This document shows, piece by piece, positions 3,936 through 64,000 of a DNA stretch of 64,000 bases. The stretch lies in NCBI GenBank assembly GCA_000091205.1, contig AP006485.2. One strand, 5' to 3'. The stretch comes from Cyanidioschyzon merolae. Its lineage: Eukaryota. Numbering within the stretch: position 1 is the first letter of the stretch; every line of letters begins with the position of its first letter. The notes below the pieces were generated by a model. That model ran no database searches, was not told the DNA's origin, and worked only from the letters and a program-made list of their open reading frames with translations. The translations under genes and the position numbers were made by a program.

Positions 3936-6591
3936 CCCCAGATAGCGCTCCAAAGACGCAGCGTTTGCAGTTGCACTCATGAATACGACTTGGAGATCAG
4001 ATCGTGAAGCCAGCAACCTCCGAACACAGCACAGCAGCATGTCCATCTCCGCACTACGTTCGTGAACCTCATCCAAAATTAAATGCGAAATATTCGTTAA
4101 ACTGGGGTCCTGCTGCAGCATCCGCAGCACGATACCGGTCGTGCAGAACGCCAGACGCGTGTGCGGTGAGATTCGGCCCTGCAGACGGACTTGATAGCCG
4201 ACAAGTCCAGCTTCGTGTGCGTTGTCGTCAGTTCTTGTGCGCTGTCTTTGCGGTGTTTCCGAGTCGGCGGTTAGGCGTTCACCGCGCTCATCAGCGACTC
4301 GTTTGGCAACGGTGATCGCCGCAATCCTCCTCGGTTGGGTCACTAGAATGCGTGTTTGCGAGGCTCGGCCCTGCAACAGTGCATTCTCAAGGATCATTGC
4401 GGGGCATTGGGTTGTTTTTCCCGATCCCGTCTCCGCTTGAATGAGAACGGGATTTGTTCCCGCAGCCAGCAAAGACAAGAATGCCTGCTGGTATTGACGA
4501 GCGGGTAAGCGGGTCAGTGCTGGTGGCGAATGCCGGCGCTCTATACGCTCTAAGCGTTCACGTTCTCGCTGCTGCAACTCGCGGTCTAGAGCGGGATCCG
4601 GTTCAATGCCTGCGCTGGAGAAGCTGCTCGAAGGCCCAGCCTTTCGAGAGCTGCTCTTTCGAGCAGTCAAGCTCCTGGAAGCGCCAGCAGGGCCAGGGCG
4701 AAGATGCGTCGGCCTCGAGTCTGGGTCAAATGCACGGCATGATGGGAGCGTAGGTGTCGCTCCTTGCTTGCTTTGCCATTCTGTTAGCCAATCGTAAATG
4801 GTTGGTGCAAGTACGGCTCCTCTGGCCGGTACACACTCAGGTGCTTGGCGACTACGATCCATCGCCAACAGCACCGCTCCATGGAGAGAACGAAGCCAGG
4901 CCCGCCGCACGCGTCGAGGCGGACGCCGCGTCGCTCGAACCGTCTCCAAAGTTGTCGTCGTTGTCGTCGAGTCTTCAAACCAGAGAATCGGAAGCGTCTC
5001 TGGATAACCATAGAGATGGCCACAGAGACGGGATAGTCCCCAACGTGTCGCCGTTGGTGTCGTTGGTGCTCCCGCTCCGGTTCGTGCTGAGGGCGTATCC
5101 AGCTTGGGCGCTGTTCTGCTGAGATCCATCTGCAAGTCGATTTCGAAGCCTTCGGCATCCACGTGATCATCGATCGACGATAGCGGTTGCGGTAGACTGG
5201 ACGAGGGGAGAACCTCACGAGTCCAGCGGAAAGCACGGCCGAAGCGTGCCTCCAGTTCCTGGCGTTCGAGTGCCCAGCAGCTACGGCGGAAATCGACGGT
5301 ATCCAGCCGTTGCTCTTTCTCTACTGAAGACTGCGTATCTGCAAGAGACCTGGAGCGAGGATCAAGTACATGCTCCGTTTCCTCGAAAAGCTCTGTCTCT
5401 TCAGAAAGAGGATCTCCCAACATATCCTCAGTAGCTGTCGCGTTCGCCGATGAAGCATACCTGAACATACAATCACCGCTGTCTCTGTTCCCGTTATAGA
5501 GGGTACCCTCCGAATGACGAAGAGAATTCTTATCCCCACTCAATTCTCGATGCTGGAGACGGCCAGTGCGTATCTTCGACGGCATCCGGACCCGCTCCAG
5601 CAGAAAAGCGATGGACTCGGTCGGTGTGAAGATCAAGAGCTCTCTTATCCAGTCGTGTGCAGCGTCAAGCACTCGATCCCTGTTCGCAAGAAGAAGCCTC
5701 TCTCCTTGAGCACGATTCATCAGCGCCATGGTGTTCACGAGCCATTCGAGCGCCCTTAGACGCTCGCTCTCGCTGTACGCACCCGAGTTGCTCTTCGCAA
5801 TACCAGCGCCTTTTTGAGTTGCGCCAGGCGTGCGCACCGTTGAGCAGGCCGGAGACGGGTCCAGGGACGCTTTCGGATCTACAGCCTTTGCACGGTTGTT
5901 TGCAGCTTCCAGTGCTTGTTTTGCATGCTCAGCACGAAAGGCGACAACCTCCGTGGCCTGCTCTGGTCTAAACGAGGGCGGCAATTCATCCTCATCGAGA
6001 TGAAGACATAACCAGTCGAGCGCCTGGGATCGCTGCTGCTCAGCAGAGCGCATCCCAGAGCCTGCAGGTTCCACGACACATCGTGCGGCTGCTTCCGCCG
6101 CTGCCTCAGCATCAAACCCGAGCTCCCGGAGCTGTTGCCAGAGCCAGTGCTGCTCCGCGCCTAGTGCCCGTGATGCCTGCATCCACATGCTCTCGAGAGA
6201 CGCCGACGCATCGAGTTCAAGGAGACAAACAAGCGCTTCCTCGACAGCAGCCCGCGTTCTATCTTCCAGTCGCAGTGGGACTAGGAGCTGCTGCTCTCGA
6301 TACGCTTTTTTGGCTTCCGCTCGTGCTCTTGCTCGAGCGTTCGCGGCTTCTGCTGCTTGTGCGGCAATCTGCTTTTCTTTAGCCTCGTGAGCAGCCACGA
6401 AGCGAGCCCAGAATGGCCGCAGGGACGGTTCTAAGCGCAAGGCATGGTTGCGCTGACGATCGACTGAAGCCAGCACCCACAAGGCAGCCAGCTTCGCTGC
6501 TTTTTCGTCTGTATCCACCATGTGGGCGTCTGCAGGTGATAAGGCCTCCCCATTCCAACTATAGACAGATGCTACTTGGTGATATGAACCC

Positions 6592-44500: not shown

Positions 44501-47152
44501 AACCAGCGGCCTGCTGCGTACGCTCATCCGATGTCGCGTTTCAACATGTGAACGCGCTGGTGCCGTCAACGCTGTCGCATCGCCAGACCAACTGGTGTTG
44601 CGTATTGGATGCTGGTGCTCATAGGCGAGGCGCAACAGTGCTCCTGACGATGCGTCGGTGCTTGCGTCGACAAAGACTACTGGATAAAGGTCGTCGTGTA
44701 GGTGCTCACGCGCCTGCACAACAACATCACCCGTTTGTAGCGAGATGCACGTGCGATTGGGTGTCCTCTCCAAAAGCAGATGCAGATGTCGGAGTTGGAT
44801 GTCGGCGAAAGGCCTTCGATCTGAAAGCTGCAGGCTCATCTGGGTATCGTCGATCCGCAATTCGATGCGGAGACCTGCAGCATCTGGTTTCCACTGAATC
44901 TGCTGGAGCGTAGACTCCAAATCGGTGACTTGCTCATCCACGTGCTCCTGTACAAAGCCTTGAAAACGTTCACCGAGCTCCTGCGCCAAGCTAGCCGGCT
45001 CAACGACGATTTTGGATTCCTCGCGCTGCTCCGAGTCTAGCCGAGCAGAGCGCGCATCAGCCTGAGGCTGGTGCTCGGATGGTTGACACAAAGTGTCAGT
45101 AGTTGCGGGCCAAATCCGCTCCACTGCGGTGTGACGCTCTTCGCGAGCAGCAGGAGCAGCAGTCGACCTAGCAGTTGGCGTCGGTATTCCCGATGTGACG
45201 TCCACACCAGACGCTGAATCCTTTGTCGCAGGTGGCGCTGAGCTCCAGCCGAGTGTGGTGGAGATCCAGCCCAGCCAGCCGGTCGACGCTGTGGCCCCAG
45301 TTCGAGCTGTTTCTGCTGTCCCGCTGGCGTCTTCAGCGGAGCCAACGACTGCGGAAACAGCTCGACCTTGATCAACGATGCTGCGTTTGGTGTTCGCTCC
45401 TGGTGTATACTGAGGCCTTTCGGCGTTAGGCTGCAGTGGTGCTCGTCTGCTGGGGTCACGTTCAAGCGCCCTGTGGTATCGTTGTATTGCCAGACTCCGA
45501 AAGTAGCGGATTTCATCGATGCTTAACTGTTGCTCCAGAGCTGCGACTGCCTCTTCCAAGTCCGCTGGATCGTTGGCAAGAGAGAGTGCCAGAGCTTCCC
45601 GTGTACCAGTGGATGCTTGGGTGCGGTCATCAGTTTCCAGTTTCACTCGCGTGTAGAGCGATATGTAGCGTTCTTTGCGTCGATGCCAAGCACCAAGATC
45701 CTCGAGCACGAATGGACGATACAAACTGGATACAAATGCTCGAACACAAAGAAGCGCAAATTTCCAACGGTTTCGCGCCCTACTCGGGTGCTGCTGCTCT
45801 GTCGCCTCTAGGGCCTGGATATCGCGCGGAAGCTCTGCGGATTGCCGCTCCTCCGGAGGAGGCATCCAGTTCAGATATCGTGAGCGATAGCGATTCCCAA
45901 ACATCCACAGATAAGGTTCGGGGGCGTTCATGAGCACCAACAAGTCTGAGCGTCGTCGCCATCCCAACCAGGTTGCGTAGCTCTTCAGTGCCGTCACCGT
46001 CTCTACCTGAGACTGTTGCAGTTGCAAACACCAGCGTTCAACACCGAGACAGAGTGAGACTCTGGTGGTGCTGTCGCTCGTCGACTGGCCAGACGAATCG
46101 TGGGGCGCTTCTGTATCCGTCGCCAAGGTGCTTGGGTACGGTCGCTCTATTCGTAGTCCGACATACCCATAGCTGGGCCTGCACAAAAGAAAGGGTTCCA
46201 TGATCTTCGCGAAACGCTCATAGTGCTCCGACAAAGATTCTCCCGCTAAGGCTGTGAATGCGGCATCCGCTGGCGTCGACTGCGAGCGATGCTGGCTCCT
46301 CATTGGTGTCAGGTAGCAGGCCAGACCATGCACCCGTAACTGTCGATCGAGGATCAAGCGCATCCTGGGTGAGGTCGCGGCCTCATTCTGGGTAGGATGA
46401 TCCAGATGAGGTCGCCATTCATGACGATAATCGGGGTCTGTCGACTTATCAGAAGCAGCGGCATTGCTATCGATCAGGCTGAGTTGCCGGAGCATCAATC
46501 CGCAACTGCTCTTTCGTGTGCCTTGAGACCGCCTCCCTTCGAGCAGGTTTGTTTCCGGTTCGACAGCGATGAAGTCGACATGAATATGCACCCGTTCTAT
46601 CTGCAACTGTAGACGACGAAGCAGAAATGCAGTGGCTCTTCCAGCAAATGTCTGCAGCCAGCCGCCGTCTCGAGCGCCTCCTGTCGAGGCACCGTTGTGC
46701 TTGCTGGACGCAGGCAGCGTCTCTTGCGAGAGCTGCTGCTCTCGTGTCGCAAGTGTCCGAGCCCAAGACTCGAGACTCTGACGCTGCTCCTCGTCGTCTA
46801 GGCGGAGAAGTTCCGCTCGAGTGGTCTGAAACGAGTCAGCGTTGTTACTGGGGGCTTCACCCGGATACCAGCACAGCTCCAGGTACACGTCTGCGATGCT
46901 GATGCTGATGATTCCATTCCACCGCGCTTGGATGGATAGCGTGCCTAGGCCAGCCCGTTGGAGTTGAAGTTCTTTGATTCCGAGATCTTGACGCCAATAG
47001 CGCTCGACCGCACCGGTTTCGAGTTCGAGATCGTGAACCTCAAAGTAGCCCCGCTGCCCTAAAGCGATTAGGACTTGCTCCCGATCTAGTCCACCTCGAA
47101 TAAACGTACCGACCTTGCTCGCAAGAAATCGATACAGCGCTTCTTCGAGCAT
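36701..47152 (-). CDS. VPS13: VPS13/chorein-family bridge-like lipid transfer protein (3483 aa)
   Basis: N-terminal chorein-N motif 'MLEEALYRFLASKVGTFIRGGLDREQVLIALGQRGYFEVHDLELETGA...LGTLSIQARWNGIISISIADVYLEL' matches the VPS13/ATG2 N-terminus. Single uninterrupted 10.4-kb ORF. Low-complexity inserts include poly-Q, (GN)n, (DAA)n, (PV)n. The C-terminal region is consistent with VPS13 ATG-C/PH-like tails. Confidence 0.8.
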
Positions 47153-47199: not shown

Positions 47200-47850
47200 A
47201 GAACCGGACGACGGCCACGCACCAAACGCCGTTCTGAAGCAAAACGTTGTCGCCGTCAGCGGTGGACAGTTGTGGCGAGAAACTCGCTATGGACAAGACG
47301 TCCCCAACTGACGTGCAGACGCCTCCCCGCCGGTTTGGACCGGCCACCCACAACTGATTCCAACTTTTTTTTTTAATATAGTTCCACTTTGAGCGGTTGT
47401 CCCTTAAAATTCTCTCTTGTCCACTCTGGAGGTCTTCTCTCCAGCACCGCACATCTCCTCATATTGATTGCTGCGTTCAGGTCTCGGTTCACGAACTCCA
47501 TACGTCCACTGCCTCTTGCTAAACTCATCATTGCGAGCAGTCCTGGCACTCGCGCCTTCTGTTCCACGACAGTCTTGTCACCTTCTTCTTCTGCTTGGTT
47601 CATTGCTGGTCTTCTCTCGATGGTCGACGAGAAGAGAAATTTTTCTATTTTCACCGGTACCTGGCAATGGCGGCCCTCCAGAATCCCAGACTTCCGTCTT
47701 CACACCTCTCCCTCGGTGTTTTTCCTCAAATAAACGCAATTCGACCACGTCTGCTATCAACTCGCGAGAGAGAATTTGACTACACGCACCTGGGGGTATC
47801 ACGCAATTGAGCTGAGAGATTATACCAAGCGAAAACACTCCGACACGATC
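47200..47850 (-). mobile_element. Fragment (copy C) of the Fanzor/TnpB-like element family: 3' end only, retains the RuvC-III motif
   Basis: ORF 47373..47654 (-) encodes '...MEFVNRDLNAAINMRRCAVLE...' (RuvC-III). Shares the invariant block 'ccaactgacgtgcagacgcctccccg' and 'ggaccggccacc' with copies A, B and D. About 80% identical to copy A over ~450-650 bp. Lies immediately upstream of the VPS13 start codon. Confidence 0.55.
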
Positions 47851-48222: not shown

Positions 48223-49431
48223 CTACCGCTCACGCTCAACTGATTCCAGCATTTCCGACACATATCGCCACACCGTGTTCGGATCCTGGTCGTGCGGGCA
48301 ATGACCGACAGCTTTCAGAGCAACAAATCGATCCACATGTGGATTGCGTGCAAACAGCTCTCGTCCGAGGGCGAAAGGTTCCCACGGATCACGCTCTCCC
48401 CAGAGGACCCAGATTGCGGGCGGATCTTTTCGAGCAGTTGCAGCCATCTGTGCAATGCTTTCGACGAGCTCCTCTGCCAGCGGGCCGCGATCATACGACG
48501 TGAACGCTAGAAATACATCCAGAGCACCGGGGCGCCTGCTTGGGGCCCGAATCCGCTCTACGAGCTCGGTACTGATGATCTGGTCCGCCTCAGGGCCATC
48601 AACAGCGTAGGCTGAGCAGAGTAACCTGCGGAGCGTCGCTGGCCGAGATACCAGAGAGAAGAAAAACTTCGCCACGGGACGAAATCCCAATACGCGCAAC
48701 GCTAATGGAGTCGTCCAGACGCGCAGACCCCGTCGTTTCTTATAGTGCAGCTGGCGAAGAGACGGATTCAGACACATAACTGCCCGAATACGCGTGCCCT
48801 GCATACCAGGATGCTCTACTGACTGGCGCAGCATGTCGCAAGCAGCTTGAAGTGCGGCAACACAACCGATTGAATTTGCAACGAGAACAACATCACGCTG
48901 TTGCGAAATCCCGGTATCTGACGCGGTCACCACAACAGTATTGATGAAATGAAGGATCTGCTGTGCCCAGCTTTCAAACGTGTACGAAAATGTCGGAGAG
49001 CCAACTTTGCCGTCGCCTTGCGTCGTGAACAGCGGTGGTGGCATATCAGCATCACCAAAGCCCAGCAAATCCAGCGCATACGCGTCGTAGCCCGCCTCCG
49101 AAATGATGTTGAGCATCTTCTGCCAGTGAAATGCCCCAGCACCGAAACCGTGAATGCATATCACAGCAGGCCTTGCCGGTGACGCCGGCGGAGCTGCAGG
49201 TTTCGCCCAGTACGTACAACGGAATCTTTCAAACAAGTAATCTTCTTGCCGAAAACCTGGCGGCAACGGTAGGAGCGGTTGAACACTCCTTAAACATTCC
49301 TCGAAAACACCACCTACATTCGTAGTGGGGTCAGCGCTCAAAGTAGAGTCGAAGTCACGACGGCCCGTTGCTCTCAGAGCGCTGTTCACCGAGTGCCCGT
49401 TTCCTTCATTTACGTCAGCCTTAACACCCAT
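48223..49431 (-). CDS. Alpha/beta-hydrolase fold protein (~402 aa)
   Basis: 'VICIHGFGAGAFHWQKM' (HGxG oxyanion region), 'GHCPHDQDP' (His of the triad near the C-terminus) and 'LVANSIGC' (nucleophile elbow GxSxG-like). The six-frame ORF extends to 49851, but its first 140 codons lie in the repeat element, so the start is set at Met141 (codon 49429-49431). Confidence 0.65.
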   Translation of the reverse strand: MGVKADVNEGNGHSVNSALRATGRRDFDSTLSADPTTNVGGVFEECLRSVQPLLPLPPGFRQEDYLFERFRCTYWAKPAAPPASPARPAVICIHGFGAGAFHWQKMLNIISEAGYDAYALDLLGFGDADMPPPLFTTQGDGKVGSPTFSYTFESWAQQILHFINTVVVTASDTGISQQRDVVLVANSIGCVAALQAACDMLRQSVEHPGMQGTRIRAVMCLNPSLRQLHYKKRRGLRVWTTPLALRVLGFRPVAKFFFSLVSRPATLRRLLCSAYAVDGPEADQIISTELVERIRAPSRRPGALDVFLAFTSYDRGPLAEELVESIAQMAATARKDPPAIWVLWGERDPWEPFALGRELFARNPHVDRFVALKAVGHCPHDQDPNTVWRYVSEMLESVERER

Positions 49432-49555
49432 AACGGCTCCAGTGCCTCCAGGCCGAGGGAGCTGACGCCTTCTAGCACTCAAGAGCGAGCGTCGCGGCCG
49501 TTCGTTACTTTTCGAGTGAAGCAGCACCGGTGCCAGGCGACAATGACCGAAGCGC

Positions 49556-50167
49556 TCACCCGTACAAACCTCTGAAACGTACCCTGGGTGGACACTCGCA
49601 CCAACACAAAACATCTTTCCAAAGACAAACGTTGCCCCCGGCCGTGTACAGTAGTGGCGAACGCGCCCTAGGCAAGGGGTCTCCAACTGACGTGCAGACG
49701 CCTCCCCGTTTTTTTGGACCGGCCACCAACGTCTGCTTCCATTTTTTCTCATATAGATCGACTTTGAGAGGTTGTCCAATAAAATCCTCTTGTGTCCAGT
49801 CTGGAGGTCGTTTCTCCAGCACCGCACATCTCCGTATATTGATAGCGGCATGAAAATCTCGGTTCACGAACTCCATACATTTCGTGCCGTTGGGAGCTGT
49901 ACTCACCAATACGAGTAACCCTTGAACTTTCGCCTTCCTTTCCAGTTGCTCCTCCGCCAGCGGTCCGTACTTTTGCAATTTCCTCAGCGCTCTTCTGGCA
50001 CTTTTCCATCTCCACCCTCTGAAGCGTGCAGCCCAGTTCCTGGTATGTATAGGACGTCCGGAACTCATATACAGGTATCGTAACGAGACGCCGGGCGCAC
50101 TCCTTGTACAGCTTCGTCGCTGGAGCTGGCGTAGTTCCTTTTCTGTTCTTCCAGTGCCTTGCTCCAT
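49556..50167 (-). CDS. Fanzor/TnpB-like nuclease, C-terminal segment with RuvC-III (copy A)
   Basis: '...[26 protein letters not shown]...' matches the TnpB/Fanzor RuvC-III consensus (NRDxNAAxNI) preceded by a Zn-finger Cys. The last ~20 codons read into flanking DNA beyond the repeat boundary. Confidence 0.55.
   Translation of the reverse strand: MEQGTGRTEKELRQLQRRSCTRSAPGVSLRYLYMSSGRPIHTRNWAARFRGWRWKSARRALRKLQKYGPLAEEQLERKAKVQGLLVLVSTAPNGTKCMEFVNRDFHAAINIRRCAVLEKRPPDWTQEDFIGQPLKVDLYEKKWKQTLVAGPKKRGGVCTSVGDPLPRARSPLLYTAGGNVCLWKDVLCWCECPPRVRFRGLYG
49600..49760 (-). ncRNA. Candidate omega-RNA (scaffold/guide) region at the 3' end of the copy A Fanzor-like ORF
   Basis: A nucleotide-invariant 26-mer across all four copies plus conserved 'ggaccggccacc' and 'aaacgttg' blocks, located where TnpB/Fanzor omega-RNAs map. 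Assigned by inference only. Confidence 0.15.
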
Positions 50168-50837
50168 ACGCTTCTACGAGCTTCTGACGGTCATCCTCCT
50201 TGAGGGCGCTCAACTGATTGAAACAATTCGCAAACGCCCGCTGCTTCACACCGTATAGATTCATTCGCAGACGAGCCCACCGGGGCTTTCTATACTCCTC
50301 CCACAGCGCATCCCAATGGGCAACACGAAATTCCATGAATTTCCGAAAAGCTTCACAGACCGCTCCGCGGCTCGTCGCCTCGCTCAAAGCTTCCAGGTGA
50401 TGCTTTATTCCTGCATTCCACGTAACGATTATCATCCTTGCATTCACTACAACGGATTCTCGATAGTATCTCGCTCTCGAGAACCTCAGCAGACGCATGT
50501 CTTTCTGGCGTAAATTACCGTCCATGCCATCTTCCGCACGCTTCGGTGCTGCGATGGTGATGATATTCGTGTTCCCAGGATCCGCGCCAACCACAATGTC
50601 TTTATCCTGCACTTCCTGTGTGGCAGGATCCGCCTCTTTCTTTCCTTGATGCTTCGTCGCGTCAACCATAAAGTCGTTATCCTGCACATTCTGTTCGGCA
50701 GGATCCGCCTCCTTCTGACCTTCATCCTTCACCGCGCCAACGACACGGTCGTTATCCTGCACTTTCTGCATCACAGGTTCCGCCTCTTTCTCTTTTTCAT
50801 CCTTCACCGCGTCAGCGACAAAGTCGTCATCCTGCAC
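49749..50837 (-). CDS. Fanzor/TnpB-like nuclease, central segment with RuvC-I and RuvC-II (copy A)
   Basis: '[18 protein letters not shown]' (RuvC-I, GxDPG) and '[22 protein letters not shown]' (RuvC-II Glu plus the first Zn-finger Cys). Frame shifts relative to the RuvC-III segment between ~50000 and ~49900. Confidence 0.55.
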
Positions 50838-50872
50838 CTCCTGTGTCGCAGGATCCGCTTCTTTGATTTTTT
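50575..50872. repeat. 75-bp tandem repeat (x ~4) inside the Fanzor-like ORF, copy A
   Basis: Encodes 25-aa units '[25 protein letters not shown] / [25 protein letters not shown] / [25 protein letters not shown] / [24 protein letters not shown]'. The last unit is the RuvC-I strand. Confidence 0.6.
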
Positions 50873-51182
50873 AATGCTTCGCAGAGGGCGAAGCGAAAGG
50901 CACAATCGGACGGTCCACTTTCAAGCGCCGATAGTGTACATACAAGGTTACTCCATCGGTCTCGATCAACGCAGTGAATACCTTTTGGCTTCTCACTTTG
51001 AGCCGTTTGAAATTGAAGATGTTCTTCAAGTACGTCGCCCGGTTTTCACCGGTGAAGTCATCCCTGCTAACAGTGAACACTGGACTGATCTCCTTCATGA
51101 TGCCGTAAAACACGTCCGAATCGATATTCACGAAACGTGACTTGATGCTGCACATTGGAACCACGTTGAAGCGCTTACCCAT
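50871..51182 (-). CDS. Fanzor-like nuclease, upstream segment '[21 protein letters not shown]...' (copy A)
   Basis: Identical to the copy B segment 57672..57983. Separated from the RuvC-I segment by a single in-frame TAA. Reading through in frame gives '[17 protein letters not shown]', a further unit of the internal repeat. Confidence 0.4.
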
Positions 51183-51203
51183 TAGGAAAGCCTTCCGTCT
51201 CTC

Positions 51204-51941
51204 CTACTCTTCATTTGTCTTTTCGCTCAGGTTCATCTCCGCTTCGCGTTCGAGCTCCGGGTCCAAGAACACAGAATACCGTACGACGATGCGATAGTAT
51301 CTCCCCTGATCCTTTTTCAACTCTGATATCTTTTCTGTTGGATTCACCAGCCCCAAGATTGCACGGCGCTCTTGTATAGCCGCACGGATCACAGATGCTT
51401 CATTCGTGCTCCTGCGTGACGTCTTCTTGTCGACAAATTCGACCTCATCTTCATGCTTGCGATCTTTCGTTATGCCATTGATAGTCGCCTATATTCATTT
51501 GAGAGAGCTGCCTGGGTAGAGTGCAAAAACGGCGCGTATCATGAAACGTTCGAGTTTCACGATCACGTGACTCTCCAGTTTCGTGATGTACTTCGTCGCC
51601 CCTTATATGTAAACATTCGAATCACCCCTGTATGGAGTACTGTTGAAGCTGTAGAGGGGATGTTTTTCGTAAAGGCCATGCACTAGCACATTTTCCCTCC
51701 GCGTTTCCGCTGTTCCAAGCATCAGGTATCGAATAAAGGTCTCGTCGAATAACTCGTCCAGAATCTCGACCGTTTCCATGTTCGCGACGTCTTCGTACAT
51801 CTCCCTCGCCAAATGCATCAGTCTTGACGACGCCTTGAAAATACTCTTGGAGTACGAATCGAAACGTTTTTCGATAGCGTCTCGCAACTTTTCCCTGTAC
51901 GGATCCTTGATGTGTCCAAGAAGAAAGATTTTCACCTCCAT
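51204..51941 (-). pseudogene. Disrupted N-terminal region of the copy A Fanzor-like gene
   Basis: Homologous to the continuous 252-aa ORF of copy B (57983..58741) but split into 51603..51941 and 51204..51392 by a 1-nt deletion and an in-frame TAG (tgg->tag) 7 codons upstream of the MGKRF Met. Confidence 0.4.
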
Positions 51942-52151
51942 CTCATTCTACAGTCATCTTTCCCGCCGCCTTCGACGTAGGGCCTCTCGCTTTCAGTTCT
52001 TCTTCTCTCCTGTTTCTTCTGGACTCGGCACTGCTTTTTGTTTGTCTCTAGCGGCCGGCGACCCCGGCCCTCCAGGAGCGTCGACTTGCTTTTTCATAGC
52101 TTTCCGTTTTTTAGTTTTTTCTTGAAAAACAACGCTCTGTGAACCCTTCTG

Positions 52152-52158
52152 TTATATA
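52152..52158 (-). promoter_or_regulatory. TATA-like box (TATATAA on minus strand) ~210 nt upstream of the copy A nuclease ATG
   Basis: 'gaacccttctgttatatactgcg' is conserved in copy B ('gaacccttctattatatactgcg') at the same distance. Confidence 0.2.
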
Positions 52159-52813
52159 CTGCGAAAAACACTTGACTAGACTTGTTTGAAGTTTCAAACA
52201 GAAACGAACTTAAAGCCTGTACTTGGCTACGACCTGAACGGAAATACAACTTTTTACAGATGAACAACACGCTACTGATCCCAATCGCGTTTCCCTTCAA
52301 CGAAGGCATACGCATCGTGTCAGTTGATTCCCCGATCTCCCAGATGCGATTACCGAGCGCGATGCGTGCGCCTCGCGAGACACCACGCCGATCGATGAAG
52401 GACACGTGCCTCAAGCCCATAGTGCAAAGAAACAGAGCTCGCTCGGGGGCACGCCTGCGCTATCGCTTTTGGCGCGAAACGCGAAATCGAAACCGCGCCT
52501 GCAGGGATCGTCTCGAACCGTTTCTCCTTCGCCGTGATCATCGATTGCCGCGGATTCGAGGCATGGTGCGGGGGAATTTGAATCGCTCGTGGGCTCTGTC
52601 GTTGCCGCTGCTGGACGTAAATATTTTTTTAGAGTTGGTGTTGTTCAACGGACGGCTGGGAACGGGCTCTTTCTCGTTCACGACACTAAATATTTTCCAT
52701 CAAAAGAAGTTTTATACAAAGGTTTCCAAAGTATAATATCAGGATTTGCTACGCTCATGGTATTTTTGGAGAGCAATATACGTAGAGGCCGCCCAGGAGG
52801 TCAAGGCTTTCGG

Positions 52814-53006
52814 ATGAAGCCTTCGCTATTTATTATTTGTTTCATACTTTGCAGTGTGTTCGCGTCTCTCGTACGGGCAGCGACTGTGACACCTACACCG
52901 ACTGCGACTGCGACACCGACTGCGACACCGACACCTACACCTACACCTACACCGACACCTCCATCGGCTACGACACCGACACCGACACCGACACCTCCAT
53001 CGGCTA

Positions 53007-53043
<37 letters not shown>

Positions 53044-53066
53044 TCCATCGGCTACGACTACGACTA

Positions 53067-53097
<31 letters not shown>

Positions 53098-55207
53098 TCC
53101 ATCGGCTACGACTACGACTACGACACCGACTGCGACACCGACTGCGACACCGACTGCGACACCGACTGCGACACCGACTGCGACACCGACTGCGACACCG
53201 ACTGCGACACCGACACCTACACCGACTGCGACACCGACTGCGACACCGACTGCGACACCGACTGCGACACCGACTGCGACACCGACTGCGACACCGACTG
53301 CGACACCGACTGCGACACCGACTGCGACACCGACTGCGACACCGACACCGACACCGACTGCGACACCGACTGCGACTGCGACTGCGACTGCGACTGCGAC
53401 TGCGACGGCGACTTCTACGGCAACTCCGACACCGATTGCGACGATGACTCCGACAATTACATCATCGCCAACGATTACTGTAACAGCGTCTCCAACGACA
53501 GTGACGATGACACCGACGATGACTCCAACTGCAACAACGTCACCAACAATCGTGCCGACGACGATTGCCACCTCGATTGCGATATCCGTTCAGAATCTTT
53601 CTCTTTGTTTGGCCGTGGCGACGGATTTGCAGAACGATCTCGAGGCTCGCTTCACGGGCCTGGTAGTGAATGTCAGCGTGACTGATAACTGCGACACGGT
53701 CTTCGGTTCGGGCACATCAAGGCGCCTCGCCACCACATTAGACAAGAGCAATCCTCGTCTGGAACGAGCATTGGTGCGCACGTCGGGCGGCAGTGTTGTG
53801 ACCTATGTGATTAAGATCTCAGGAGACACATCCCTCGCCAGTGATGCGCAAAGTGTGCTTCAAACTTTCACCGACCAGCTTTCTACAATTCTACCCTCTG
53901 GTGCGACACTTGCTATTATAACCCCGACACCGAGTGCAACGCCAACACCAGTTTGCACGAGTGAAATCTGCGGTTCTCCGGGCCAGTACACAAACCGGGA
54001 CGCTTGCGAGCAAGTCGGGTGCTGCTTTAACTCCCAGACGAACGCGTGCACCCTGAAGAGCGTCTCAGCGGCCTGCAGCGCTGTTCCAGTGACGCAGCGC
54101 GTCCCCTGCGGCTGGAGCTACATCTACCCCGACGAGTGCACTGCGATACCGGGATGCTGCTGGCAGCCAACGGCGAACGGCATCCTGGCACCCTGGTGCT
54201 ACTACGACATCAACCATGCACCGCAGGCCTCTGTAGCGCTGCAGGAGGTGCAGGCACCGGTTCCCCTCTGCCCGTCACCGGGAGCGCAGCGCCAGCCGTG
54301 CGGCAACGCGGGCATCAACCAGTTTACGTGCTATGCCCAGGGCTGCTGCTACGACTCGCAGGCGCAGAACCAGTGGGTGCAGAACGGCAAGCAGCAGAGC
54401 GACTTTGCGTCGAACCCGTACTGCTTCCAGCCCGAGAAGACGTGCGCGGTGGGCGAGTTTGAGCGCCAGCCGTGCACGAACGCGGTGAATCAGAACCAGC
54501 AGCTGAACAATAACATCAACAACAACCAGTTTGTGCGTCTGCTGAACACGCTTCTGTACGGAGAGCAGCACGGGACGCAGCGCACGAGCTACTCGCCGCA
54601 GCAGTGTCTGGAGGCTGGTTGCTGCCTGGGGCTCAGCAACGAGTGCTTCCAGCCGATGACCGAGTACGTGTGCCAGACCTACGGGTATGTGTCGAACTCG
54701 CTGAGCGGCACGACCGGCAACGTATCGAACTCGAGCTATATTCCGTGTGGCCCGGAGTGCTGCAACGCCGAGACGCAGAACTGCACGTACAACCCGTTCA
54801 GCAACAACAACAACCAGCAGCAGCAGCAGCAGCAGCAATTGCAACAACTGCAGCAACAACAGGTGCTGCTGCCGTCATTCTGTGTGTGCAAGGACCCTAC
54901 GAAGCAGTGCGGGACGTACCTGATCCCTTCGGATAACCTTGTGAACAAGGTGCGTTGCTGCCGCGCTGACGAGGAGTGCATCAACAACCAATGTGTGGTG
55001 ATTAGTCCAACACCGACTCCGAGTCCCGTGGCTGTGACAGCGACACCCTCTGCGACGGTGTCTGCAACAGTCTCTGCGACAGCTTCTGCGACGGTGTCTG
55101 CGAGTGCATCAACGAGTGCATCAGCGAGTGCTTCAGTTTCAGCCTCTGTGTCGACGTCTGCGAGCGCCTCGGAATCAGCGACATCTTCAGCTCCACCGAC
55201 TGCGTGA
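52814..55207 (+). CDS. Secreted mucin-like Thr/Pro-rich protein with 3-4 trefoil (P-type)-like cysteine domains
   Basis: Signal peptide '[23 protein letters not shown]'. Contains ~180 aa of (PTPTAT)n. Cys modules are '[21 protein letters not shown]', '[22 protein letters not shown]...APWCYYD' and '[22 protein letters not shown]...NPYCF', all matching the trefoil pattern RxxCGxxG..C...GCC[FWY]D..PWC[FY]. Also has a poly-Q/N tract and a Ser/Ala/Thr-rich C-terminal tail. Start taken as Met76 of the 872-aa ORF. Confidence 0.75.
52884..53440. repeat. 12-bp coding minisatellite (accgactgcgac)n encoding (PTAT/PTPT)n
   Basis: Read directly. It creates long shadow ORFs in other frames and on the opposite strand. 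Confidence 0.85.
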
Positions 55208-56355: not shown

Positions 56356-56967
56356 CTAGGTACTCTTCGCAAATACGTTCTGAATAAGCGACGTGACGCG
56401 CCCGCACCGAACGCCTCTCAAAAGACAAACGTTGCCCCCGGCCGTGTACAGTAGTGGCGAACGCGCCCTAGGCAAGGGGTCTCCAACTGACGTGCAGACG
56501 CCTCCCCGTTTTTTTGGACCGGCCACCAACGTCTGCTTCCATTTTTTCTCATATAGTTCAACTTTGAGAGGTTGTCCAACAAAATCCTCTTGTGTCCAGT
56601 CTGGAGGTCGTTTCTCCAGCACCGCACATCTCCGTATATTGATAGCGGCATGAAAATCTCGGTTCACGAACTCCATACATTTCGTGCCGTTGGGAGCTGT
56701 ACTCACCAATACGAGTAACCCTTGAACTTTCGCCTTCCTTTCCAGTTGCTCCTCCGCCAGCGGTCCGTACTTTTGCAATTTCCTCAGCGCTCTTCTGGCA
56801 CTTTTCCATCTCCACCCTCTGAAGCGTGCAGCCCAGTTCCTGGTATGTATAGGACGTCCGGAACTCATACACAGGTATCGTAACGAGACGCCGGGCGCAC
56901 TCCTTGTGCAGCTTCGTCGCTGGAGCTGGCGTAGTTCCTTTTCTGTTCTTCCAGCGCCCTGCTCCAT
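56356..56967 (-). CDS. Fanzor/TnpB-like nuclease, C-terminal segment with RuvC-III (copy B)
   Basis: '...[20 protein letters not shown]...'. About 98% identical to the copy A segment. The C-terminal tail diverges where the ORF reads into flanking DNA. Confidence 0.5.
   Translation of the reverse strand: MEQGAGRTEKELRQLQRRSCTRSAPGVSLRYLCMSSGRPIHTRNWAARFRGWRWKSARRALRKLQKYGPLAEEQLERKAKVQGLLVLVSTAPNGTKCMEFVNRDFHAAINIRRCAVLEKRPPDWTQEDFVGQPLKVELYEKKWKQTLVAGPKKRGGVCTSVGDPLPRARSPLLYTAGGNVCLLRGVRCGRVTSLIQNVFAKST
56400..56560 (-). ncRNA. Candidate omega-RNA region at the 3' end of the copy B Fanzor-like ORF
   Basis: Same invariant blocks as copy A, but the adjacent distal segment differs ('gcaccgaacgcctctc' vs 'gcaccaacacaaaacatctttcc'). 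Confidence 0.15.
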
Positions 56968-57136
56968 ACGCTTCTACGAGCTTCTGACGGTCATCCTCCT
57001 TGAGGGCGCTCAACTGATTGAAACAATTCGCAAACGCCCGCTGCTTCACACCGTATAGATTCATTCGCAGACGAGCCCACCGGGGCTTTCTATACTCCTC
57101 CCACAGCGCATCCCAATGGGCAACACGAAATTCCAT
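56558..57136 (-). CDS. Fanzor/TnpB-like nuclease segment with RuvC-II / Zn-finger start (copy B)
   Basis: '...[32 protein letters not shown]...'. Separated from the RuvC-I segment by a private frameshift. Confidence 0.5.
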   Translation of the reverse strand: MEFRVAHWDALWEEYRKPRWARLRMNLYGVKQRAFANCFNQLSALKEDDRQKLVEAYGAGRWKNRKGTTPAPATKLHKECARRLVTIPVYEFRTSYTYQELGCTLQRVEMEKCQKSAEEIAKVRTAGGGATGKEGESSRVTRIGEYSSQRHEMYGVREPRFSCRYQYTEMCGAGETTSRLDTRGFCWTTSQS

Positions 57137-57152
57137 GAATTTCCGAAAAGCT

Positions 57153-57638
57153 TCATAAGACCGCTCCGCGGCTCGTCGCCTCGCTCAAAGCTTCCAGGTG
57201 ATGCTTTATTCCTGCATTCCACGTAACGATTATCATCCTTGCATTCACTACAACGGATTCTCGATAGTATCTCGCTCTCGAGAACCTCAGCAGACGCATG
57301 TCTTTCTGGCGTAAATTACCGTCCATGCCATCTTCCGCACGCTTCGGTGCTGCGATGGTGATGATATTCGTGTTCCCAGGATCCGCGCCAACCACAATGT
57401 CTTTATCCTGCACTTCCTGTGTGGCAGGATCCGCCTCTTTCTTTCCTTGATGCTTCGTCGCGTCAACCATAAAGTCGTTATCCTGCACATTCTGTTCGGC
57501 AGGATCCGCCTCCTTCTGACCTTCATCCTTCACCGCGCCAACGACACGGTCGTTATCCTGCACTTTCTGCATCACAGGTTCCGCCTCTTTCTCTTTTTCA
57601 TCCTTCACCGCGTCAGCGACAAAGTCGTCATCCTGCAC
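57153..57638 (-). CDS. Fanzor/TnpB-like nuclease segment with RuvC-I and the 75-bp repeats (copy B)
   Basis: '...[18 protein letters not shown]...' identical to copy A. Truncated at 'RGAVL*' by the private 1-nt insertion. Confidence 0.5.
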
Positions 57639-57671
57639 CTCCTGTGTCGCAGGATCCGCTTCTTTGATTTT

Positions 57672-57983
57672 TTAATGCTTCGCAGAGGGCGAAGCGAAAG
57701 GCACAATCGGACGGTCCACTTTCAAGCGCCGATAGTGTACATACAAGGTTACTCCATCGGTCTCGATCAACGCAGTGAATACCTTTTGGCTTCTCACTTT
57801 GAGCCGTTTGAAATTGAAGATGTTCTTCAAGTACGTCGCCCGGTTTTCACCGGTGAAGTCATCCCTGCTAACAGTGAACACTGGACTGATCTCCTTCATG
57901 ATGCCGTAAAACACGTCCGAATCGATATTCACGAAACGTGACTTGATGCTGCACATTGGAACCACGTTGAAGCGCTTACCCAT
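57672..57983 (-). CDS. Fanzor-like nuclease upstream segment 'MGKRF...' (copy B)
   Basis: 100% identical in amino-acid sequence to 50871..51182. Confidence 0.4.
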
Positions 57984-58741
57984 TAGGACAGCCTTCCGTC
58001 TCTCCCAATCTTCTTTTTTTCTTCACTCAGCTTCATCTCCGCATTTCGCTCGAGTTCTCGGTCGAGAAACATGAAATAGCGCAGAATAAGACGATAGTAT
58101 CTTTCCTTATCTTTTTTCAACTCTGATGTCTTGTCTGTTGGATTCGCCGGCCCCAAGATTGCACGGTGCTCTTGTATAACCGAATGGATTACAGAAGTAT
58201 CATTCGTGCTGTCGTTAAACGCCTTCGTGTCGACGAATTCGACTTCACCTTCATGCTTGCGATCGTTCTTGATGCCGTTGATAATCTCCCATATTCCTTT
58301 GCGAGAGATACCCGGGTACAGCGCAAACACGGCGCGTATCATGAAACGTTCGAGTTTCATTGTCAAATGGTTCGTCAGGTTCGTGAGGTTCTTCATCTCC
58401 CCATAGTCGTAAATACTCCGGTCCCCCTTGTATCGAGTACCCTCGAAGCCGTAAAAGGGATGTTTTTCGTGGAGGGCATGAACCCGCTCGTTTTCCTCCC
58501 GCGCTTCCACTGTTCCAAGCATCAGGTATCGAATAAAGGTCTCGTCGAATAACTCGTCCAGAATCTCGACCGTTTCCATGTACGTCACGTTTTCGTACAT
58601 CTCCCTCGCCAAATGCATCAGTCTTGACGACGCCTTGAAAATACCCATGGAGTACGAATCGAAACGTTTTTCGATAGCGTCTCGCAACTTTTCCCTGTAA
58701 GGATGCTTGATATGTTTAAGAAGACAGGCTTTCACCATCAT
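57983..58741 (-). CDS. Fanzor-like nuclease N-terminal domain (copy B), 252 aa continuous
   Basis: 'MMVKACLLKHIKHPYREKLRDAIEKRFDSY...'. About 80% identical to the split copy A region. Ends at a TAA overlapping the MGKRF ATG ('cTAATGg'), caused by a 1-nt loss in a poly-A run. Confidence 0.5.
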   Translation of the reverse strand: MMVKACLLKHIKHPYREKLRDAIEKRFDSYSMGIFKASSRLMHLAREMYENVTYMETVEILDELFDETFIRYLMLGTVEAREENERVHALHEKHPFYGFEGTRYKGDRSIYDYGEMKNLTNLTNHLTMKLERFMIRAVFALYPGISRKGIWEIINGIKNDRKHEGEVEFVDTKAFNDSTNDTSVIHSVIQEHRAILGPANPTDKTSELKKDKERYYRLILRYFMFLDRELERNAEMKLSEEKKKIGRDGRLS

Positions 58742-58951
58742 CTCGTCGTACAGTCGTCTTTCTTGCCGCCTTCGACCTAGGGCCTCCCCCGTCGGTCCTT
58801 CTTCTCTCCTGTTTCTTCTGGACTAGGCACTGTTTTTTGTTTTTATTTCTGGCAGCAGGCGACCCTGGACCTACGGAATCGTCGACTTGCTTTTTCATAG
58901 CTTTTCTTTTCATTTTTTTTGTGTGAAAAAGAACGCTCCTTGAACCCTTCT

Positions 58952-58958
58952 ATTATAT
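58952..58958 (-). promoter_or_regulatory. TATA-like box upstream of the copy B nuclease ATG
   Basis: Conserved with copy A at the same spacing (~211 nt). Confidence 0.2.
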
Positions 58959-60209
58959 ACTGCGAGAAATCAATTGAATATGTTTACTTGAGGGTTGAGA
59001 CACAATCGAACTGGAAACTATGATTTGTTACGACTTCCACGCAAATACAGCTTGCCCGTTAGAACATCAAGAAAACGTGTCGTCACGGTCGCGTTTCTCT
59101 TCAAAGGCGACAGATGCGTCGTGTCTCGTAAGTGCCATACTTGGAGATGCACGTATCAAGCGCGCCATACAGGAAAAAGGACAGTGACCTACGATTTACA
59201 AGAAACGATATAAAATTTTTTCCCGCTCTACGATAAGCGTTTAAGGGGAAACAGATCGCCGTATTATCGGAAGCTTATGTTCGAGGCGGTAGGTCCCGCG
59301 AGCCGGTCGAGTCTACCGGGCTAGAGCTCGGTATCCCTCTTAAGTGGCTGCTGCCGCTGCTGCTGCTGCTGCTGCAAGACCTGCGCAGCTCGTTCACAAC
59401 GCATTTTATCCTGAGACTATGCACAGGATGCTGCGTTGGGCCTCGCCCTGGTCGCAGTGGAACCCTAGTATAGCGCTTCGCGCTGCCGTAGGTAGTGGGT
59501 CTGTCTGCCCATTTTGCATGTTTCCAGAATGACAAATAGCCCTGATTCCGTTTCAGGTGAATCATCCTCCCAGAGGACGCCCTTATTGGTATGGCAAAGC
59601 CGTTCTGTCTCTGTACAGCACCTGCTTGAGCGGTATAAGCGCAACAGCGGGTGCTCACAACAGGCTCGGCGCTCGATAGAACATACGAAACGACCAGTGT
59701 ATCAGAGAGGAAGTATGGGTAATGGGACTTGAGGACAGGTGCACTATGACAGTGATATCCCCGGAAGCCATTATCCGTTCCGAATTCTGGGATCCATGGG
59801 CAATGTAAACGTTTTTTCATCAAAAAGAAAAAACGCCCCGAGGCGGACTCGTCATCGAGACGCACATCCCTCTGGATCGAATCTCCGGAAGGCGCTTCTG
59901 GGCGATCGCAAAAGCCCTCAAGTGCATCTTTGTATTCTCAACGGATAGCATGCTTTATTCGGAGCGCTCAGTCTCGAGCGTTCCCTCTAACTTTAAGCAA
60001 TAGCTTCGTAGATCAGACAGCTGTGTTGTCAAAGAGCACTGTACCTAGTTTTGGCGAGGTCTATAGTGCTGGAGAACAAAACGATCACGGGTTTGTAGCG
60101 ATCTCGGCACCAGTGCTAGAAACAACCCTGCACTGGAGCTCGTGCGATCTAAAACCTGTAGTCGGACTTTTTAGAAGATCTGTCTGGCAAGGAAACAAAT
60201 CGTGGAACT

Positions 60210-62399: not shown

Positions 62400-64000
62400 G
62401 ACCGAAACGTCTCGTAAGACCACCGCACCCGACGACAACAAACATCTTTCGAAACAAAAACGTTGCTGCCGGCAGTAGACAGTACTGGCGAGAAACTCGC
62501 CCTAGACAAGAAGTCGCCAACTGACGTGCAGACGCCTCCCCGTCTTTTCCGCCCGGCCACCTACTGTGGGTACCATTTGTTCTTATATAGTTCCAGTTTA
62601 AGAGGTTGTCCAACAATGGACTCTCGTGTCACCGCTGGGAGCTTTTTGTCTATTCCCGCACATCTCCGTAGATTGATTGCAGCGTTAAAGACTCGGTTCG
62701 CGAACTCCATACGTTTCTTGCGGTTGACAGTCGTACTTACTAATGCAAGTAGTCCACGAGCTTCTCCCCTCCTTTCCATTTCCTCTCCCGTCAGCTGTCC
62801 CTTACTTTTTTATATCATCAGGACTCCACTGGCACTTTTCCATCTCCATCTTCTGAAGAGTACATCCCAACTCGTGGTGTGTATACGATGTTCGGAACTC
62901 ACCCACAGGTACCGTAGCGAGACCCAGTGCGCACTCCTTGCCCATTCCTGCCGTTGGAGCTGGTGGAGTCCCTTTTTTTCGGAGCCCAGCTCCCTACACC
63001 ATATGTAACAACGAGCCTCTGACTTGATCCTATTTCAAGGCGTTCAATCGATTGAAAAAGCTCGCGAATGCGTGATGCTTACCACGGCACAGATTCATAC
63101 GCAAACGTGCCCAGCGGTGCTTTGTATACTCGCCCTACAGCGCCACGGAATGAGCAACCCCAACTTCCAAAAATTTCAGAAAAGCTTGAATGTCCGCTCA
63201 TCGGCTCGTCACCACGCTCAAAGCCTCCAGGTGATCCTTCATTCCTACATTCCACGTAACGATCTTCTTCCTTGCATTCATTATACCGGATTCTCGATAG
63301 TATCTCTCTCTCTCGAAAACCTCAGCAGAAGCATATGTTTGTGGCGTAAGGTGCCGTCAGTGCAATCTTCCCTTCGCTTGTGAACAGCGATGGTTATGAG
63401 ATTCGTGCTCCAGGGACTAAGGCCGACGCCAAAGTGGTTTTCATGGGGCTTATACGTTCCATAGCCCGTCAACCTGTGTTCGTTCTTCGGCAAGGGCCGT
63501 AAAGAAAACGGGATAGGACGAGCTGCCTTCAACCGCTGATGGTGTACACATATGTGCGCCACATCGAGATCGATTGTTCCAGTGAATAACCTTTTTTTGG
63601 CCGGTTCGGGACACTTGAAATCGAAGATATTCTTCTCGTAGGCGTCCCGATCTTCACCGGAGACCTATTTGTTGATTACATCGAGCTATGGATAGATCTC
63701 TATCCTGAAGATGCAAAAGGACTATGGGGTCAATATACACAAAATGTGACTTGAACGCGCATAACCGACCGACATTGAAGCGCATCTGGAGAAGACTTCA
63801 ATGTCGTTTCTCGCACTCGTCTTTTTTTCCACACTCAGCTCCATGCCGACCCTGCGATCGAGGTCTCGGACCGAAAACATGAAGCAGGGCAGGATAAGAG
63901 AGTAACAACTCTCTCCGTCGTTTCTCATATCCGAGAGTTTTCTCTTGGGTTGACATGACCCAAGACCGAACGATGTTTTAGAATAGTCGCGCGAATTACA
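62400..64000 (-). mobile_element. Degenerate copy D of the Fanzor/TnpB-like element (continues past the window end)
   Basis: About 75% identical to copy A from the 3' end through the RuvC-I region and beyond (63600-63960 aligns to A 50990-51260). The RuvC-I Asp is lost ('GLSPWSTNLITIAV') and the RuvC-III Asp is replaced ('MEFANRVFNAAINL'). The invariant 26-mer is nevertheless 100% retained. Confidence 0.5.

Follow-up and report, generated by a model that had tools for sequence, protein, structure and literature searches.

What function, if any, is served by a short block of nucleotides that recurs without change at the end of a nuclease gene? The question is raised by a 64,000-nt stretch of DNA, here called the window, from chromosome 3 of Cyanidioschyzon merolae 10D, recognised as such by exact matches to the proteins CMC194C and CMC182C. 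Four repeat copies, A to D, lie in it, all on the minus strand, and are members of CMe-1A, a Fanzor1 transposon family of this species. The 26-nt block, CCAACTGACGTGCAGACGCCTCCCCG, is found exactly on the plus strand at 47304, 49683, 56483 and 62517, where none would be expected by chance. It belongs to a predicted structured tail of ~140 nt, which begins ~64 nt (~21 codons) before the consensus stop codon of the open reading frame (ORF) and ends at the terminal hexamer GGTGYG. This right end probably provides the scaffold of a Fanzor omega RNA (ωRNA). We favour this function over others since the position and ~140 nt size of the tail, its ~21-codon overlap with the ORF, its bias towards the sense strand and the abrupt end of similarity past GGTGYG match the ωRNAs of Fanzor1 and TnpB nucleases. 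Fanzor and TnpB ωRNA scaffolds overlap the end of the ORF and abut the transposon end (PMC10432273); Fanzor1 ωRNAs are 75-150 nt long, and that of GtFz1 overlaps 17 ORF codons (PMC10432273, PMC11423790).

By analogy with these systems, we infer a scaffold RNA that the nuclease would bind and that would arise from the 3′ end of the Fanzor transcript, either as part of it or by processing. Host DNA directly past GGTGYG, different at every insertion, would supply a guide of ~15-20 nt and, as in TnpB systems, would direct cleavage of sites matching the flank, in conjunction with any target-adjacent motif (TAM).

The CMe-1A copies and their nuclease

CMe-1A was named and described as a Fanzor1 family of C. 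merolae by Bao and Jurka (2013; PMC3627910). The passages of that paper which concern the family give it ~150 copies of ~3 kb, with ~80% identity to the consensus and without terminal inverted repeats; they leave the target-site duplications and the element ends undetermined and the class unknown, and make no mention of a 3′ structured region or RNA. The 5′ 635 bp are described there as common to TE-N2_CMe. The present assignment was made against this published description. The window copies resemble the described family in their host, in a Fanzor1-type ORF, in the lack of terminal inverted repeats (no inverted repeats were found in the window) and in a separable 5′ module; they are ~3-3.4 kb long and ~77-93% identical to each other. 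New with respect to the 2013 description are the two ends: judging from where similarity between copies stops, the element finishes in GGTGYG on its 3′ side, and on its 5′ side the limit is a variable T-run preceding GACAAAACGTTT. The copies are as follows.

49597-52175, minus strand: copy A, assigned to CMe-1A (Fanzor1), ~850 bp missing at the 5′ end; pseudogene
56403-59833 (5′ limit ~59833), minus strand: copy B, assigned to CMe-1A, full-length, ~3.4 kb; pseudogene
47218-47503, minus strand: copy C, a 3′ fragment with the ORF end and the right end
62424-~63445, minus strand: copy D, diverged and only partly present

An nhmmer scan of the window for extra or orphan right ends returned copies A-D only. 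Copies A and B are 93% identical over 2.56 kb, whilst identity to B is 79.3% for copy C and 76.9% for copy D, close to the ~75% for which a preliminary description of this DNA had called D degenerate. The same description held that all four copies share several short motifs in addition to the block, and these, read on the minus strand as GGTGGCCGG(T/G)(C/G)C, CAACGTTT and GGTGCG, are indeed present in 4/4 copies. None of the copies has an intact Fanzor ORF: only a 3′ fragment remains of C, D is diverged and partial, and in A and B the nuclease ORF is interrupted by an in-frame stop common to the two as well as by frameshifts, of which copy A has at least two. A and B are dead relics, since the ORF and the predicted fold of the right end have both decayed in them.

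The ORF had been proposed to encode a TnpB/Fanzor-type nuclease, and catalytic residues, profile matches and fold matches all support this and point more narrowly to Fanzor1. Three-frame translation of copies A and B recovers the RuvC motifs GADPGN and YEFRTS and a third motif of 10 residues, split across frames. Across 74 aligned homologues, selected from 2,704 matches among 1.84 billion representatives, the RuvC triad D421, E592 and D658 is invariant (74/74), and 19 of the homologues match the Pfam family Cas12f1-like_TNB. A profile of the broad family (A5) matched PpFz1 (9cf0, 9.5e-23), SpuFz1 (8gkh, 6.6e-16) and GtFz1 (9cer, 2.1e-12) in the PDB. A narrow family profile (A2) found no match in the PDB, and Pfam and PDB phmmer searches with the ORF fragments of the window returned nothing useful. 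For the fold, AlphaFold2 (AF2) was applied to P0108, a full-length relative that shares ~38% identity with the window protein (predicted local distance difference test score, pLDDT, 88.7); an earlier AF2 model from a shallow alignment (pLDDT 53) was not used in the fold search. Foldseek placed SpuFz, PpFz and GtFz at the top of the matches to the P0108 model (E ~1e-18 to 1e-15, template modelling score 0.5-0.71), followed by Cas12 proteins, and the model has the bilobed REC/WED/RuvC/TNB fold.

Just upstream of RuvC-I the Fanzor ORF carries a 75-nt (25-aa) tandem repeat of 3.8 copies with 78% identity, at 50582-50864 and 57383-57665 on the minus strand. The number of units differs among homologues, P0001 being an example, and the repeat is therefore taken to be a variable acidic linker in the nuclease.

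The block at the end of the reading frame

Conservation of the block was followed in 80 related loci from one metagenome scan. All derive from a handful of Joint Genome Institute (JGI) samples, which we take from their accession series to be hot-spring communities, and the sixty-odd unique copies among them (62 in the count of ORF ends) are not phylogenetically independent. Orthologues of window copies are included, L026 and L048 corresponding to B and L049 to C. The block was found in 74/81 loci. Its reported invariance holds within the window, but among the 74 related loci the number of substitutions in the 26-mer ranges from 0 to 6, the core GGCGTCTGCAC alone being nearly fixed.

In the family consensus the reading frame passes through the block, which encodes (T)GRRLHVSW, and stops at a TAG 13 nt later. 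This is as expected if the block has no function beyond the protein, in which case it would encode a basic C-terminal tail (…GGRSKKTGRRLHVSWRRFV*), possibly nuclear-localisation-like, the rest of the similarity being shared ancestry of young copies. The distribution of entropy bears on this explanation in both directions. Over the ORF, entropy is ~0.3-0.45 at codon positions 1 and 2 and ~0.66 at position 3. The entropy of the 60 nt after the stop (0.69-0.95, against ~1.9 in the flanks) is similar to that of third positions, and third positions show no significant difference in entropy between the final 150 nt of the ORF and the part upstream (p = 0.12); both observations agree with a purely protein-coding role. 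Against it, codon periodicity is gone in the last 36 nt of the ORF (0.65, 0.63 and 0.56 at the three positions), and in the block the usual order is inverted, with 0.61/0.46 at positions 1/2 and 0.43 at position 3. When compared with other windows of the ORF, the nine block codons rank 16/304 for low third-position entropy and 7/304 for the ratio of position 3 to positions 1/2, whilst the four codons AGG CGT CTG CAC rank 5/309 for third-position conservation. Nonsynonymous changes are seen in the block (GTC to ATC, CTC or TTC; AGT to GGT, CGT or AAT) while the third positions of these four codons stay nearly fixed. The consensus of the wider Fanzor family also appears to end ~20 residues earlier, as judged by eye on the consensus line of the 74-homologue alignment. 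Furthermore, the ORF ends before the block in 34/62 unique copies, which retain the block all the same, and uses the consensus TAG in only 13. A protein-only explanation would also leave the excess of sense-strand folding described below unaccounted for, and we regard it as improbable.

The earlier proposal that the block is conserved above the coding level is thus borne out weakly, by the block ranks and not by the last 150 nt as a whole. Because periodicity is lost, third positions are kept and the wider family ends earlier, the block lies in a poorly constrained C-terminal extension of the ORF and is conserved, to a modest degree, at the nucleotide level.

In several independent copies an early stop falls at one of the same two sites, directly after RPPE (TTG/TGG/TCG to TAG) or after NFIG (GGA CAA to GGA TAA); the loci concerned are L013, L017, L019, L032, L050, L055 and L069, and L007, L009 and L029. 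C-termini too short to reach the structured region may thus have arisen more than once or been inherited.

Copies A and B share a 1-nt deletion upstream of the block (AAAAA-TGG as compared with AAAAGTTGG), which shifts the frame, so that the consensus stop lies out of frame and their ORFs read on. The 203-aa ORFs do run 41 and 47 nt past the element boundary, as had been noted, but this read-through, once considered typical of a nuclease with an adjoining guide RNA, is a frameshift artefact of pseudogenes.

The structured tail and the element ends

Helices that recur between copies were taken from folds of single sequences and mapped onto the alignment. A long-range helix, P1, is predicted between CAGTAGTGG within the ORF and CCACTACTG past the stop codon; P2 pairs GTCC with GGGC, and in P3 the arms GAC…GAGGCGTCT and AGACGTCTT…GTC enclose the loop GCACGTCAGTTGG. 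The 26-mer comprises the 5′ arm and the 13-nt loop of P3. The predicted domain closed by P1 thus encloses the stem-loop of the block, and a terminal hairpin of 13-19 bp completes the tail, its stem reaching 19 bp in locus L010 (CACCGTTGGCGTCGTTCGA-CTT-TCGAACGGCGTTGATGGTG). The 5′ arm of this hairpin contains CAACGTTT, whilst GGTGCG, the last hexamer of the element, lies at the foot of the stem, where CAC(C) is its partner on the 5′ side in L010 and L037; the hexamer is common to copies with unrelated flanks. Past the stop codon an island, CCACTACTGTAC, is conserved, with an entropy of 0.1-0.8 compared with ~1.9 in the flanks, and directly past GGTGYG entropy jumps from ~0.7-0.95 to 1.7-1.9. 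The positions in the window are listed here.

49727-49736, minus strand: copy A, predicted P1 5′ strand; family consensus GCAGTAGTRG, GCAGACGTTG in A and B
49683-49708, minus strand: copy A, 26-nt block CGGGGAGGCGTCTGCACGTCAGTTGG; predicted P3 5′ arm and 13-nt loop
49671-49682, minus strand: copy A, predicted P3 3′ arm AGACCCCTTGCC
49668-49670, minus strand: copy A, position of the family-consensus stop TAG, out of frame in A and B
49648-49657, minus strand: copy A, predicted P1 3′ strand CCACTACTGT, in the conserved island after the stop
49603-49647, minus strand: copy A, terminal hairpin region, decayed; 5′ arm holds CAACGTTT
49603-49626, minus strand: copy A, variable segment (hairpin loop and 3′ arm)
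49597-49602, minus strand: copy A, terminal hexamer GGTGCG, which closes the element and forms the foot of the extended terminal stem
49577-49596, minus strand: copy A, flank where between-copy similarity ends; candidate guide position by analogy with SpuFz1
Copy B, minus strand: block 56483-56508; terminal hairpin 56409-56447; GGTGCG 56403-56408; flank 56383-56402
Copy C, minus strand: block 47304-47329; GGTGCG 47218-47223
Copy D, minus strand: block 62517-62542; terminal hairpin 62440-62478; GGTGCG 62424-62429

The region in question had been said to abut the element boundary, and it is in fact the 3′ end of the element. Excess predicted structure is confined to it. Across related copies, the 146-nt tail is more stable than dinucleotide shuffles (mean z = -2.3), whilst windows of the ORF are not (-0.15 and -0.17), and in 40/40 copies folding is stronger on the sense strand than on the antisense (-57.7 versus -43.7 kcal/mol). 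For the terminal 55 nt, z is -1.83 on the sense strand as compared with -0.86 on the antisense (p = 2e-5), -0.02 in the flank and +0.31 in the ORF. Two types of terminal hairpin, both with stems of 13-19 bp, differ by a 3-nt register shift; owing to this shift, RNAalifold on plain MAFFT alignments is nearly blind to them, and folds of single sequences, arm swaps and a count on type 1 alone were used for this reason. Exchange of the arms of the terminal hairpin between copies costs 2.3 kcal/mol (native -16.0, chimeric -13.7; p = 0.0125). Over all helices, 79.6% of cells are paired compared with 78.6% when shuffled (0/500 shuffles as high), with 39 double changes versus 28.9 (3/500); for type-1 hairpins alone the values are 75.8% versus 73.6% (10/500) and 18 versus 11.5 (11/500). 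At one pair of P1, A-U has changed to U-A in two lineages, L003 and copy C with its orthologue L049, and copy C retains P1 through this compensatory change (CAGTTGTGG/CCACAACTG). The comparison of folds and covariance suggested by the preliminary description therefore yields an excess of folding and a sense bias, together with covariation that appears modest and confined to the terminal hairpin, being absent or minimal in P1-P3.

A role in the 3′-end formation or stability of the Fanzor messenger RNA, as an element of its 3′ untranslated region with no part in guiding, would likewise place a structure of the sense strand at and after the stop codon. No known signal of this kind was identified, however, and the structure begins within the ORF and runs exactly to the last base of the element. 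Related Fanzor1 proteins, moreover, all use RNA from this position (PMC10432273, PMC11423790). We consider a role restricted to the messenger RNA highly improbable.

Several results weigh against an ωRNA scaffold. Copies A and B fold no better than shuffled sequences (z = +0.40 and +0.38, as compared with -1.71 for C and -2.10 for D, which are better preserved). In A and B, P1 is lost through mutation of its 5′ strand to GCAGACGTTG. The z-score of the terminal hairpin as RNA is 0.09 in A and -0.18 in B, but -3.23 in D, -4.9 in L010, -2.7 in L037 and -2.6 in L028. Arm swaps across P1-P3 carry no significant cost (p = 0.21), and these helices seem to be kept mainly by sequence conservation. RNAalifold on the plain alignments gave 4 pairs and 0 pairs. 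As the copies are related, the shuffle controls can overstate support. The entropy of the noncoding tail (0.69-0.95) is not below that of third codon positions (0.66), and much of the similarity could therefore be shared ancestry. Rfam gave 0 matches at gathering scores over the whole window, and a permissive Rfam search of 49450-49950 gave only a chance-level match to MIR396 (E = 8). Comparison of the flanks of the left end revealed no TAM-like motif. Finally, the hairpins also fold as single-stranded DNA of the sense strand (z = -2.5 to -3.5), and a role at the DNA level would therefore fit this folding equally well.

The mutated P1 5′ strand of copies A and B, GCAGACGTTG, can pair with CAACGTTTGTC, a part of the terminal hairpin's 5′ arm (in A, 49727-49736 with 49626-49636). 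The two form an alternative long-range helix of 10 bp in the minimum-energy fold of A and B, and the same sequence is found in L026 and L048. This helix may be due to chance or may represent a refolded variant.

The DNA-level alternative is that the right end is only, or mainly, a transposition signal, a transposase recognising the 3′ hairpin and GGTGYG as single- or double-stranded DNA in a manner resembling the Helitron 3′ hairpin or the subterminal hairpins of IS200/IS605. Besides folding with DNA parameters, the right end has features that favour this. Similarity ends sharply past GGTGYG, and the 5′ boundaries fall in discrete classes whilst the 3′ end is constant. CMe-1A is described, in the part of the 2013 paper devoted to it, without terminal inverted repeats or target-site duplications and as of unknown class (PMC3627910), and the window likewise holds no inverted repeats. 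On the other hand, the terminus is GGTGYG and not the CTRR of Helitrons, and the next base differs, being A, G, T and G in the four copies. The left end, unlike that of IS200/IS605, lacks a significant hairpin: its first 80 nt show no excess structure (mean z = +0.2; antisense -0.02). TE-N2_CMe (~70 copies) consists only of the 5′ 635 bp of CMe-1A according to the relevant passages of Bao and Jurka (PMC3627910), and would therefore spread without the right end. A structure of ~140 nt, with a long-range helix across the stop codon and several conserved G·U pairs, exceeds the requirements of a hairpin for end recognition, and the hairpin of copy D is stable as RNA only (z = -3.2, compared with +0.8 as DNA). 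The surroundings of the copies examined showed no transposase gene. A transposition signal is compatible with an ωRNA in the same place; as the sole or main function of the right end we judge it possible but rather unlikely.

If the right end does encode an ωRNA scaffold, where would its guide lie? The preliminary description assigned this role to the segments between GGTGCG and CAACGTTT, which it took to be specific to each copy. These segments, 12-28 nt long, align instead as diverged homologues: counted by hand on the alignment, A and D are identical at ~15/18 positions and B and C at 11/18, and the segments of A and D cross-match with 3 mismatches in 16. They form the loop and the 3′ arm of the terminal hairpin. 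Since they are homologous hairpin arms inside the element, they do not qualify as guides, and a search of the window for their targets, allowing up to 3 mismatches, returned matches at the level of chance only. In SpuFz1 the 14-15 nt guide is situated past the conserved region (PMC10432273); by analogy, the candidate guides would run outwards from the hexamer, from 49596 to 49577 in A, 56402 to 56383 in B, 47217 to 47198 in C and 62423 to 62404 in D. These true flanks are unrelated between copies, as a guide model requires, yet this holds for any transposon; their targets in the window were likewise at chance level (3 mismatches or fewer).

The flanks of two copies are also the upstream regions of host genes in the same orientation, the right ends of C and A lying 66 nt and ~165 nt upstream, respectively. 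In copy C, 66 nt separate GGTGCG (47218-47223) from the start codon of CMC182C (ATG at 47152). Beside copy A is an α/β-hydrolase-like ORF with a likely ATG at 49432 (interval 49432-49602), and the 542-aa ORF at 48223-49851 is an artificial extension of this gene into the element.

At the other end of the element, full-length copies begin with unrelated flank, a run of 5-10 T and then C(A/G)(A/T)T-GACAAAACGTTTAC… (B ~59820-59845; L018, L027, L032, L061, L066 and L072). The T-run and C(A/G)(A/T)T could be part of the element or a target preference. The variable T-run resembles the poly(A) tail of an antisense retroposon, and TE-N2_CMe might be such a retroposon. The 5′ part is modular whilst the 3′ end is constant: the Fanzor-containing copies have 5′ boundaries at ~59833, 59054, 59021 and 58978 in copy-B coordinates, copy A starting at 58978. 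In L066 (minus strand, ~5339-5470) a left-end unit of ~63 bp which contains GGTGCG is tandemly duplicated, and in L015 (~1262-1330) the right end (…GGCGTTTGGTGTGG) directly adjoins an internal left-end fragment; both arrangements may be traces of end-to-end junctions.

Elsewhere in the window, between A and B, a 12-nt tandem array of CGACTGCGACAC (~44 copies, 83% identity) occupies 52881-53412 within an 872-aa ORF of the plus strand at 52589-55207.

Comparison with known systems

Fanzors are eukaryotic RNA-guided nucleases, and both their native role and the movement of Fanzor elements of unknown class are open questions. CMe-1A could be a Fanzor1 element in which an unusually large RNA scaffold, the ~140 nt at the 3′ end, is the sole conserved terminal structure, with no terminal inverted repeats, target-site duplications, left-end hairpin or linked transposase. 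It is tempting to speculate, though we think it improbable, that in this red alga, where homologous recombination is efficient, the RNA-guided nuclease and its ωRNA maintain or spread the family without a classical transposase, by homing through break repair. In that case truncated right ends, copy C among them, might survive as orphan genes for guide RNAs.

The general principle and the transposon family were already known. A literature search found no paper on C. merolae Fanzor RNA and no description of the CMe-1A 3′ scaffold, boundaries or guide position, so that the candidate scaffold, the boundaries and the corrected guide position appear to be new. C. merolae is a thermo-acidophilic model alga with a small genome and ~150 CMe-1A copies, and it can be transformed by homologous recombination. 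A 3′ boundary, a candidate scaffold and a guide position allow direct mapping of small RNAs, pull-down with a reconstructed Fanzor and a TAM screen. The alga grows at ~42-45 °C, and a nuclease from an organism living at such heat could be of interest for genome editing; otherwise the result will not surprise a specialist, given its place behind a Fanzor gene.

Helitrons resemble CMe-1A in having a hairpin near the 3′ end, no terminal inverted repeats or target-site duplications, and variable 5′ parts. The CMe-1A hairpin, however, reaches the very end of the element whilst that of Helitrons stops 10-12 nt before it, the A/T insertion signature is lacking and no Rep/helicase gene was seen. The assignment was rejected on the ends themselves, the right end being GGTGYG, which is part of the stem, and not CTRR, and the left end a T-run and not 5′-TC. 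Replitrons were set aside as they have not been reported in red algae (PMC10288648).

There is also a parallel with the IS200/IS605 elements and the TnpB ωRNA of ISDra2. In those the RNA is templated by the last part of the nuclease ORF together with the right end, as proposed here for CMe-1A; the guide would correspond to the outside flank, and terminal inverted repeats and target-site duplications are likewise absent. CMe-1A differs in residing in a eukaryote with no TnpA nearby, and an IS200/IS605-like element was rejected since the left end has no subterminal hairpin, only the right end being structured.

The Fanzor1 ωRNAs of SpuFz1, GtFz1 and PpFz1 (Saito 2023; Xu 2024) provide a further comparison. 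The known examples carry a conserved 7-bp helix, SL1, and end in an inverted repeat; CMe-1A lacks the repeat, and its tail, recognised here from sequence alone, has no detected sequence similarity to known ωRNAs. The nuclease nevertheless belongs, by profile and by fold, to the same protein family, and the predicted structured segment, like those ωRNAs, overlaps the end of the ORF (by ~21 codons), has a suitable length (~140 nt), abuts the transposon end and is followed at once by unrelated sequence.

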